64,000 nt of DNA from Rickettsiales bacterium. GTDB taxonomy: Bacteria > Pseudomonadota > Alphaproteobacteria > Rickettsiales > Rickettsiaceae. The notes beneath the pieces were generated by a model, which was not told the origin of the DNA, made no database searches, and saw only the letters and a program-made list of their open reading frames with translations. Positions 6,754-7,159 of the stretch are shown here, one piece after another (position 1 is the stretch's first letter; every line of letters starts with the position of its first letter). A program made the position numbers and the translations under genes. Where the stretch lies: assembly GCA_002402195.1 (NCBI GenBank), contig NVVL01000001.1, positions 16,069 to 80,068 on the forward strand, in the 5' to 3' direction.

Positions 6754-6877
6754 GTTCCACTGAAAGTCGGGAAGTTGAAAGAACCGTGCTAGACAGCTAT
6801 GAAGACACCCAACAGCTAAACGGCAAAGCCATGCATAACTATGGTGAATGCCTCCATCTCCCCGGTTCCAGTGGAAC
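6754..6877 (-). promoter_or_regulatory. Structured leader with candidate antisense target sites (c4 a/b-like)
   Basis: A 12-bp stem (6866-6877 with 6754-6765) encloses an internal hairpin and two 12-mers (6819-6830, 6770-6781) complementary to the hairpins of the upstream RNA. Confidence 0.5.
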
Positions 6878-6907
6878 CAAGAGAAGTCTATCATTTTATG
6901 GCTGACA

Positions 6908-6974
6908 GATAGCCACTAGCAAAGAAGCTTTCAAACTCCAGGATAACTGATTTTGTCATCCCAGTGGCACTATC
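6908..6974 (-). ncRNA. C4-antisense-like small RNA
   Basis: Closing stem GAUAG(UG)CCACUGG/CUAGUGGCUAUC encloses hairpins GAUGAC-AAAAUCA-GUUAUC and GGAGUU-UGAA-AGCUUC. This architecture matches phage P1/P7 C4-type RNAs. Confidence 0.55.
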
Positions 6975-7159
6975 AACTAAAATAGCAAGAGTGTTAAGAA
7001 GTTTAAACAAAATAGTTGAATAAAGATTAATCCTATGATTGTTATAGAGCAGCAAAGCACCACCTCTGGCTATACCGTTAGGGTAGCGCACTCTATGAGG
7101 TGAATTCTTTAGTCTTGTTTTTTGTGGAGCTTCCTCAGTTTCCATCTTGGTGAGGTATT

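Follow-up and report, generated by a model that had tools for sequence, protein, structure and literature searches.

A candidate leader RNA upstream of a 161-aa open reading frame

In a 64,000-nt stretch of the genome of a Rickettsiales bacterium (contig NVVL01000001.1; hereafter the window, and its 1.9-Mb assembly the source genome), an intergenic region at 6674-7243 separates an autotransporter gene (7244-9799, minus strand) from a 161-amino-acid (aa) open reading frame (ORF) on the same strand. This region has a strong propensity to fold (z = -8.25 relative to shuffled sequence; z = -3.95 for 6900-6985) and is composite, combining a palindromic repeat with a leader unit of ~340 nt (~7040-6690). 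The leader unit is present in seven copies in the assembly: one in the window, two in tandem on contig C30 (C30:95-760) and one each on C14, C64, C35 and C110. When aligned, the copies share conserved blocks and a promoter-like site; the variable stretches in between change in a paired fashion.

An initial annotation of this DNA had proposed a C4-like antisense RNA switch, in which two hairpins of a small RNA would pair with two downstream targets. Our analysis points to a different architecture: a leader RNA of ~290 nt with its own predicted promoter, one copy of which probably occupies 6997-6674 of the minus strand, folded around a multi-helix core and belonging to a family carried by mobile elements.

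A covarying long-range helix closes the core of the RNA

The segment GGAGUUUGAAAG (6939-6928, minus strand) is complementary at 11/12 positions to CUUUCAACUUCC (6781-6770). This pairing, helix P1, had already been noticed in the initial annotation and proved real, as it covaries between copies: five of its pairs are altered on both sides among the seven copies of the source genome. A second long-range helix, 6882-6874/6762-6754, is 100% paired in the same copies, with one pair altered on both sides. Tested jointly, the two helices were 93.9% paired and reached a covariation score of 0.268, as compared to 0.111 in shuffled alignments (0/500 reached the observed value) and at most 0.093 in slid controls. 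Compensation at P1 extends to the 38 copies collected across the genus, where pairs occur as AU:18/CG:14/GC:4 and GC:20/AU:10/CG:6. When the predicted transcript (6962-6674) was folded by energy minimization, P1, the 5' hairpin P0 and the inner helices emerged unaided.

Because the strands of P1 enclose conserved, covarying helices (P2-P5) of the same transcript, the 6939-6928/6781-6770 pairing reads, from sequence comparison, as a helix that closes a single folded RNA, and not as an antisense RNA facing its target. The other half of the earlier two-loop, two-target scheme fared no better. Hairpin 1 (6960-6949) and its supposed target at 6830-6819 were 55% paired, versus 50% in shuffles and 58% in the slid control, and their duplex (-6.6 kcal/mol in the window copy) was not better than shuffled sequence (-9.3 kcal/mol). 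This target lies inside the variable insert of P4, which is missing from two copies. One of the two proposed pairings is thus at chance level, and the other is the closing helix. In the upstream tandem copy on C30, the P1 5' strand (UAGAAA) mismatches its own 3' strand (UUUGCA); the latter instead fits the P1 5' strand of the C14 copy.

The complete structure was built by hand on the seven aligned copies of the source genome, in which 92.3% of cells were paired, 14 pairs were altered on both sides and 0/500 shuffles matched the score. Across the genus, the 38 re-aligned copies were 92.7% paired, with 28/34 pairs altered on both sides; they reached a covariation score of 0.518, against 0.221 in shuffles and ~0.09 in slid controls; as this alignment was fitted to a covariance model, its pairing and covariation counts lean towards the modelled structure. 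Individual elements followed suit. P0 was found in all relatives, several of which carry GNRA loops. The P2 pseudoknot, formed by the loop UCUGUC (6909-6904) and GAUAGA (6892-6887), was 100% paired in the seven copies, with two pairs altered on both sides (UUCACC/GGUGGA in the C35 copy). All nine pairs of P4 (9/9) were altered on both sides across the genus, with 94.6% of cells paired. The 3' hairpin T was 93.5% paired in the seven copies, with one pair altered on both sides, and has an equivalent in relatives (median z -3.5, 76 copies). The sequences at the junctions of the RNA are highly conserved.

Two further stems noted in the initial annotation were also considered. The outer part of a closing stem spanning 6974-6908 coincides with the promoter -10 hexamer, and its partner CUAUC covaries with GAUAGA in the pseudoknot; we rejected this outer stem for overlapping the -10 box and competing with a covarying element. 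Its inner 5 bp were 86% paired, a value that 62/500 shuffles reached. Stems at 7025-7095 do appear in the minimum-energy fold; they lie upstream of the promoter and are common to only three copies of the source genome.

Table 1 Features of the leader locus, listed in 5'-to-3' order of the minus strand where they form part of the RNA.
Feature	Position	Strand	Sequence, basis or remark
Sigma-70-like promoter	6969..6997	minus	-35 TTAACA (6997-6992), 17-nt spacer, -10 GATAGT (6974-6969); consensus scan
P0, 5' hairpin	6941..6961	minus	GGAUGAC / GUUAUCC; hairpin 1 of the initial annotation; 4/7 pairs altered on both sides (7 copies)
P1, 5' strand	6928..6939	minus	GGAGUUUGAAAG; hairpin 2 of the initial annotation; alternative local hairpin with 6929-6924
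P2, hairpin and pseudoknot	6887..6915	minus	UGGCU 6915-6911 / AGCCA 6903-6899
P3, hairpin	6858..6883	minus	CUCUUGGUUCC-ACU-GGAACCGGGGAG; covariation; arms also complementary to the linker and the T 5' arm
P4, long stem	6799..6857	minus	AUGGAGGCA 6857-6849 / UGUCUUCAU 6807-6799; variable insert as cap
P5, small hairpin	6784..6796	minus	CUGU-CUAGC-ACGG; 7-copy and 38-copy pairing analyses
P1, 3' strand	6770..6781	minus	CUUUCAACUUCC; target of the initial annotation; anti-Shine-Dalgarno-like; covariation
Linker	6769-6763	minus	CGACUUU; between P1 3' strand and T
T, hairpin	6717..6762	minus	CAGUGGAAC 6762-6754 / GUUCUACUG 6725-6717; inner U-run ~6731-6726
AU-rich spacer	6674..6716	minus	Shine-Dalgarno site GGAG (6685-6682), then start codon at 6673
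161-aa ORF	6188..6673	minus	Degenerate resolvase (serine recombinase catalytic) domain without the RVS(S/T)xxQ motif
Segment equivalent to RF02221	6760..6869	minus	P3 3' arm, P4, P5, P1 3' strand and linker; via alphaproteobacterial copies

With respect to transcription, the -35 hexamer of the window copy reads TTGACA in the other copies of the source genome (TTGACA-17-GATAGT). The pattern TTGAC(A/T)-N16-19-TAnnnT was present in 74/87 copies, as opposed to 2.6% of random windows, nearly always with 21-30 nt between the end of its -10 element and the core. Transcription of the window copy is inferred to start near 6962. A second promoter-like site lies inside the RNA (6893-6922, minus strand; TTGCTA-18-TAAAAT), its -10 being AUAAAAUGAU, a conserved stretch located between P2 and the pseudoknot. 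A shorter 3' transcript, similar to the catalogued RNA sRNA-Xcc1 discussed below, could originate from this site.

Two readings without any RNA function were weighed against these data. The element might be a dispersed DNA repeat of the miniature inverted-repeat transposable element or repetitive extragenic palindromic (REP) type, given its many copies (seven in the source genome, as many as 17 in a relative) and a source genome rich in palindromic repeats. G-U pairs far outnumber A-C pairs, however (160:14 and 135:6), and the pairing is therefore specific to the minus-strand RNA; on this strand asymmetry, we rejected a pure DNA repeat. Compensatory changes in many helices down to class-level divergence, the conserved promoter, the constant orientation to the following gene in the copies inspected and the lack of terminal inverted repeats or target duplications at the copy ends likewise make this reading very improbable. 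The second reading, that the ORFs 7145-6891 (84 aa) and 6894-6706 (62 aa) are real genes, draws on the fact that both frames are open and joined by a coupled-looking ATGA overlap. We consider its likelihood practically nil: the ORFs match no family and have no homologues, the copies differ by frame-breaking indels of lengths not divisible by three (an 8-nt gap, for instance), such frames are absent in relatives, and the variation tracks base-pairing rather than codons.

Covariance models uncover the family in Rickettsiales and beyond

The distribution of the RNA was mapped with two covariance models: R1, of the core, and R2, built from Rickettsiaceae copies. R1 returned full-length matches in 20/28 genomes of the genus. 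R2 matched 71/131 Rickettsiaceae genomes (54%), with up to 17 copies per genome and up to 12 in Rickettsia genomes, as well as 123/401 genomes and 69/189 genera of the order. At the level of the class, where the RNA is sparser, the model matched 28/301 genomes of Alphaproteobacteria.

The family was revealed by covariance models only, and not by sequence or motif searches. In 40 relatives, blastn found no leader copy, the sole match being 27 bases long (E 4.7e-4); with an alphaproteobacterial copy as the query, it found no match in plasmid and phage collections. The exact motif CTTCCCGACTTYCARTGGAAC was absent from the genome contigs (0) and viral contigs (0) searched, a single chance match falling in a high-GC metagenome contig. 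Allowing up to two mismatches, the motif was recovered among 400 genomes of the order from the source genome and one doubtful site only.

Among published small RNA (sRNA) predictions, two candidates from Rickettsia bellii RML369-C contain R2 matches: Candidate_1_NC_007940 (392587-392864, +; match at 392668-392845) and Candidate_3_NC_007940 (505298-505595, +; match at 505399-505576). In the entries of Additional file 1 of Schroeder et al. 2015 (PMC4683814), these SIPHT candidates are unnamed and flagged as paralogous, as a possible 5' untranslated region (UTR) and as 'RS'; in contrast to the leader family described here, the entries themselves carry no structure, family, distribution or gene link. 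Rc_sR3 and Rc_sR33 of Rickettsia conorii were also considered as leader copies and rejected: because the published primer maps away from the model matches, these are a different element. A leader copy near 10.4 kb may or may not correspond to the published Rc_sR2. The family would provide Rickettsia and its relatives, for which few regulators are known, with a widespread structured RNA that escapes detection by Rfam 15.

The RNA resembles an extended form of sRNA-Xcc1

The catalogued RNA closest to the window element is sRNA-Xcc1 (RF02221), detected as an 88-nt species on a Northern blot in Xanthomonas campestris (PMC2996969). It precedes symE in integron cassettes (bioRxiv 10.1101/2025.06.18.660453) and an ORF6N protein in APSE phages (bioRxiv 10.1101/2020.03.17.996009); a Xylella island carries five expressed tandem copies ~381 nt apart (PMC12189769). 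RF02221 scored above its cut-off in 46/401 Pseudomonadota genomes. The window copy itself had no RF02221 match at E<=10, while the 3' half of two alphaproteobacterial copies scored 31.6-32.6 bits, below the cut-off of 53. In these alignments, the RF02221 closing stem falls on the P3 3' arm (UCGGGGAG) and the linker (CUCCCCGA), a stem that is 84% paired in the 38 genus copies, and its two inner hairpins correspond to P4 and P5. Common to both RNAs are therefore the stem of a G-rich arm and the CCCCGR linker, the conserved internal loop of P4, and P5.

In the reverse comparison, R2 matched 2/14 genuine RF02221 loci over its full length (E 2.4e-10 and 5.6e-6), and five of the six genuine loci that could be anchored carry a P1 5' strand 83-100 nt upstream. 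The strands differ between these loci in a compensatory manner: CUAGAAAC/GUUUCUAG, CUAAGAAAC/GUUUCUUAG and GUCGAAAC/GUUUCGAAC. Because genuine loci carry this complementary strand upstream, the catalogued 87-nt family appears to be part of a longer RNA with P1. We regard the window RNA as a probable long, divergent relative of sRNA-Xcc1, a kinship that draws on sub-threshold and reciprocal matches and shared architecture, with no score above the curated cut-off.

In the alphaproteobacterial copies, the likeness takes in the P3 3' arm, P4 (whose internal loop is of the AUACAAUA/GAAUAA type), P5, the 3' strand of P1 and the CCCCGA linker. Both RNAs also reside in mobile DNA, occur in several or tandem copies, and lie upstream of varied cargo (symE, ORF6N protein, antirepressor). 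The two differ in extent: RF02221 models 87 nt closed by the P3 arm and linker, without P0, P1, P2 and its pseudoknot, or T. This suggests that what is catalogued as sRNA-Xcc1 represents the 3' part of a larger leader, its stem competing with the covarying P1, which renders the switch model set out below testable. The element would accordingly be a divergent full-length member of an under-described superfamily of sRNA-Xcc1-related RNAs that is widespread in Rickettsiales. The sRNA-Xcc1 literature surveyed draws no link to serine recombinases or to Rickettsiales.

Elsewhere in the source genome, contig C44 carries two sRNA-Xcc1-like elements (C44:22825-22913 and 23194-23281; RF02221 scores of 34.3 and 32.7 bits, below cut-off), 369 nt apart and unmatched by R2. 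The first precedes a 77-aa gene of the Cro/CI helix-turn-helix type, and a VapBC-like pair adjoins.

C4-type immunity RNAs are not matched

The label given in the initial annotation was that of a C4/CI-type immunity RNA, that is, a ~70-90-nt RNA processed from the leader, whose loops would block downstream sites on the same or another transcript. Covariance models lent this no support. Rfam assigned no family to the whole window at gathering score, and a permissive scan of 6500-7400 (E<=10) returned three noise matches, none to C4, c4-2, c4-a1b1 or IsrK; in 29 related loci, none of these four families matched at E<=1. On these grounds, the C4 label was rejected. The setting does not correspond to phage immunity either, as the window leader does not precede an antirepressor and the next gene is a dead resolvase domain.

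There are real parallels with C4, CI and IsrK (RF01695, RF01394, c4-2, c4-a1b1): both are leader-encoded RNAs of mobile-element operons, with short complementary segments within one transcript and competing folds that could act on termination or translation, and some relatives of the window RNA have an antirepressor downstream. The complementarity is also genuine and copy-specific, the wider family precedes an antirepressor in one prophage, a further sRNA-Xcc1 copy in Xylella adjoins C4 and IsrK matches (PMC12189769), and the region homologous to ours in Xanthomonas gives rise to the discrete 88-nt RNA mentioned above (PMC2996969). That species corresponds to the 3' half of the leader, however, and not to its 5' hairpins. 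Moreover, the window RNA has one real pairing, which closes a multi-helix core, the second loop-target pair being at chance level; the supposed target, some ~100 nt ahead of the start codon, forms the 3' strand of a helix enclosing four conserved helices. C4 and CI RNAs measure ~70-80 nt, whereas the core of the window RNA is much larger (~190 nt). Taken with the negative model searches, we deem a C4-type mechanism improbable.

Leader copies precede recombinase and other mobile-element genes

In most of ~90 copies inspected, the RNA is followed by a same-strand ORF with a Shine-Dalgarno (SD) site. Outside Rickettsiaceae, 11/20 sampled copies lie 20-50 nt before a gene for a large serine recombinase (507-609 aa), with T overlapping or abutting the ribosome-binding region such that the SD or start codon falls within or just after this hairpin. 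At one genuine sRNA-Xcc1 locus (L170), a P22-type antirepressor (P22_AR_N) is encoded downstream and a Rha regulator upstream. Within Rickettsiaceae, the downstream genes encode small ankyrin-like proteins, coiled-coil proteins of 58-60 aa, an SSS-type membrane protein, or members of a 95-165-aa protein family to which the window's 161-aa ORF belongs. Members of this last family follow many Rickettsiaceae copies and are themselves followed, at some loci, by a large serine recombinase gene.

The 161-aa ORF had no Pfam or NCBIfam match, and its homologues were confined to the source genome. In profile-profile comparison, its family aligned to the N-termini of large serine recombinases (92% probability, E 6.6e-7). 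Because this comparison derives the 95-165-aa family from the resolvase catalytic domain, the 'orphan' of the window is explained, on sequence grounds, as a decayed recombinase relic that kept its leader. The gene downstream of the leader was probably an integrase or antirepressor originally.

These observations agree with several elements of the initial annotation. The locus does lie outside any visible prophage, and an origin in mobile elements, with an RNA regulatory candidate before the 6673-6188 ORF, is borne out by relatives that precede antirepressor and integrase genes. That this ORF has a switch candidate upstream likewise stands, whereas its description as an orphan gives way to that of a serine recombinase relic. 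These associations tie the RNA family to how large serine recombinase (integrase) and antirepressor genes may be controlled; the literature searched describes no RNA control of large serine recombinases.

The source genome additionally encodes an intact large serine recombinase of 526 aa (C77:6007-7587; L157 1008-2588, minus strand), the N-terminus of which is 65% identical to that of a leader-linked recombinase from another family.

Competing folds suggest a two-state cis-acting switch

The P3 region can pair in more than one way, as the initial annotation had rightly recognized: GGUUCC-ACU-GGAACC can form a hairpin by itself, whereas the 5' arm of this hairpin together with its loop (6882-6874) also complements CAGUGGAAC (6762-6754), the 5' arm of T. 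In the window, the second set of pairings comprises 6882-6874/6762-6754 and CGGGGAG/CUUCCCG; across the family, it takes the form of UGGUCGGGGAG with CUCCCCGAYCA. This set includes the P3 3' arm/linker stem curated in RF02221. The 3' strand of P1 furthermore complements the GGAGUUG present at the ribosome-binding site of the 161-aa ORF, with a duplex energy of -9.3 kcal/mol as compared to -6.6 kcal/mol for shuffled sequence in the window copy, and means of -9.3 versus -6.1 kcal/mol over 76 copies.

We propose that the leader acts as a cis-acting switch with two predicted states. In the closed state, P1, P3 and T would all be formed. In the open state, the P3 region would pair with the linker and the T 5' arm, giving the curated sRNA-Xcc1 stem; P1 would open, and its C-rich 3' strand would be freed to pair with the SD site. 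The balance of the two folds would set transcription read-through, translation of the downstream gene, or both, and the trigger could be a protein, an RNA, a small molecule or temperature. A cis switch on these steps is favoured because the P1 3' strand complements the ribosome-binding site and because, in recombinase-linked copies, T covers or borders the SD or start codon. A promoter-driven, structured leader RNA of mobile elements, presumed to switch in cis between two states, is the best explanation of the data, and one that we hold with moderate confidence.

Riboswitch and attenuator leaders offer the nearest functional parallel. The window RNA shares with them a predicted promoter of its own, a location in the 5' UTR of a same-strand ORF, a conserved core closed by P1 with a hairpin directly 3' of it followed by the SD and start codon, predicted mutually exclusive pairings, and compensatory changes. 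Unlike these leaders, it has no known ligand, and the genes behind it belong to mobile elements or are accessory instead of serving one pathway.

Several observations weigh against the two-state cis switch. The alternative helix and its extension consist mostly of invariant bases and so covary weakly. No intrinsic terminator was called in the window copy by consensus scan. The downstream genes are very diverse, so that a metabolite ligand is not suggested, and the large serine recombinase gene of the source genome has no leader copy upstream. Tandem copies without an intervening ORF (C30, L065, L117) hint at a function independent of the next gene. Finally, in spotted-fever-type Rickettsia (L124, L125, L126, L132), the leader is intact (~100 bits) whereas the small downstream ORFs are shortened or carry stops; one such leader copy lies upstream of gyrA.

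The last two points equally nourish a serious rival: a free-standing functional RNA that does not control the next gene, be it a trans-acting sRNA, an RNA partner of the recombinase, or a ribozyme. Its own predicted promoter, its highly conserved junction sequences and its persistence in tandem or beside decayed ORFs would suit such an RNA, and sRNA-Xcc1 is reportedly called trans-acting in the title of Chen et al. 2011. In Rickettsiaceae copies (L029-L064, L104-L133), a recurrent hairpin and then UUUGUUUAAC also follow T, ~10-25 nt before the SD, and so stand between the RNA and the ORF; this decamer is also present in the phage T7 gene 10 leader of expression vectors. Conversely, most copies inspected lie close to an SD-bearing ORF on the same strand, recombinase-linked copies have the SD or start codon within or just after T, and the RNA has no known target or cleavage site. 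We therefore place a free-standing function clearly behind the cis switch in probability, yet ahead of the other alternatives considered.

Somewhat less probable still, and in our view rather unlikely, is that the full-length RNA serves as a sensor or cofactor of the mobile element, which would detect a cellular signal or bind a recombinase or regulator and thereby license expression of integrase, antirepressor or cargo. It would then represent a new riboswitch-like or protein-responsive class, and the 88-nt sRNA-Xcc1 would be only one processed or alternative product. In a stronger version, it may be an RNA partner for large serine recombinases. Bridge RNAs of the IS110 family come to mind as structured noncoding RNAs located just upstream of a recombinase gene in a mobile element; the recombinase here, however, is a large serine enzyme and not of the DEDD/IS110 type, and the leader precedes unrelated genes as well.

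Neighbouring repeats and gene pairs

Other repeats and gene pairs lie near leader copies. By sequence reading, toxin-antitoxin-like pairs lie directly upstream of the leader copies on C64 and C35, one comprising a PIN/VapC-like protein and a small antitoxin, the other a RelE/ParE-like protein and a Phd-like antitoxin. In the window, the palindromic portion of the intergenic region (~7158-7247) is a REP-like element that adjoins the autotransporter gene at its 3' end; the genome holds >40 copies of it, on both strands. A separate repeat of ~120 nt (6012-6134) is located just downstream of the 161-aa ORF, where it overlaps the ORF 5901-6191; at least 12 copies, with 77-91% identity, are spread over the genome.

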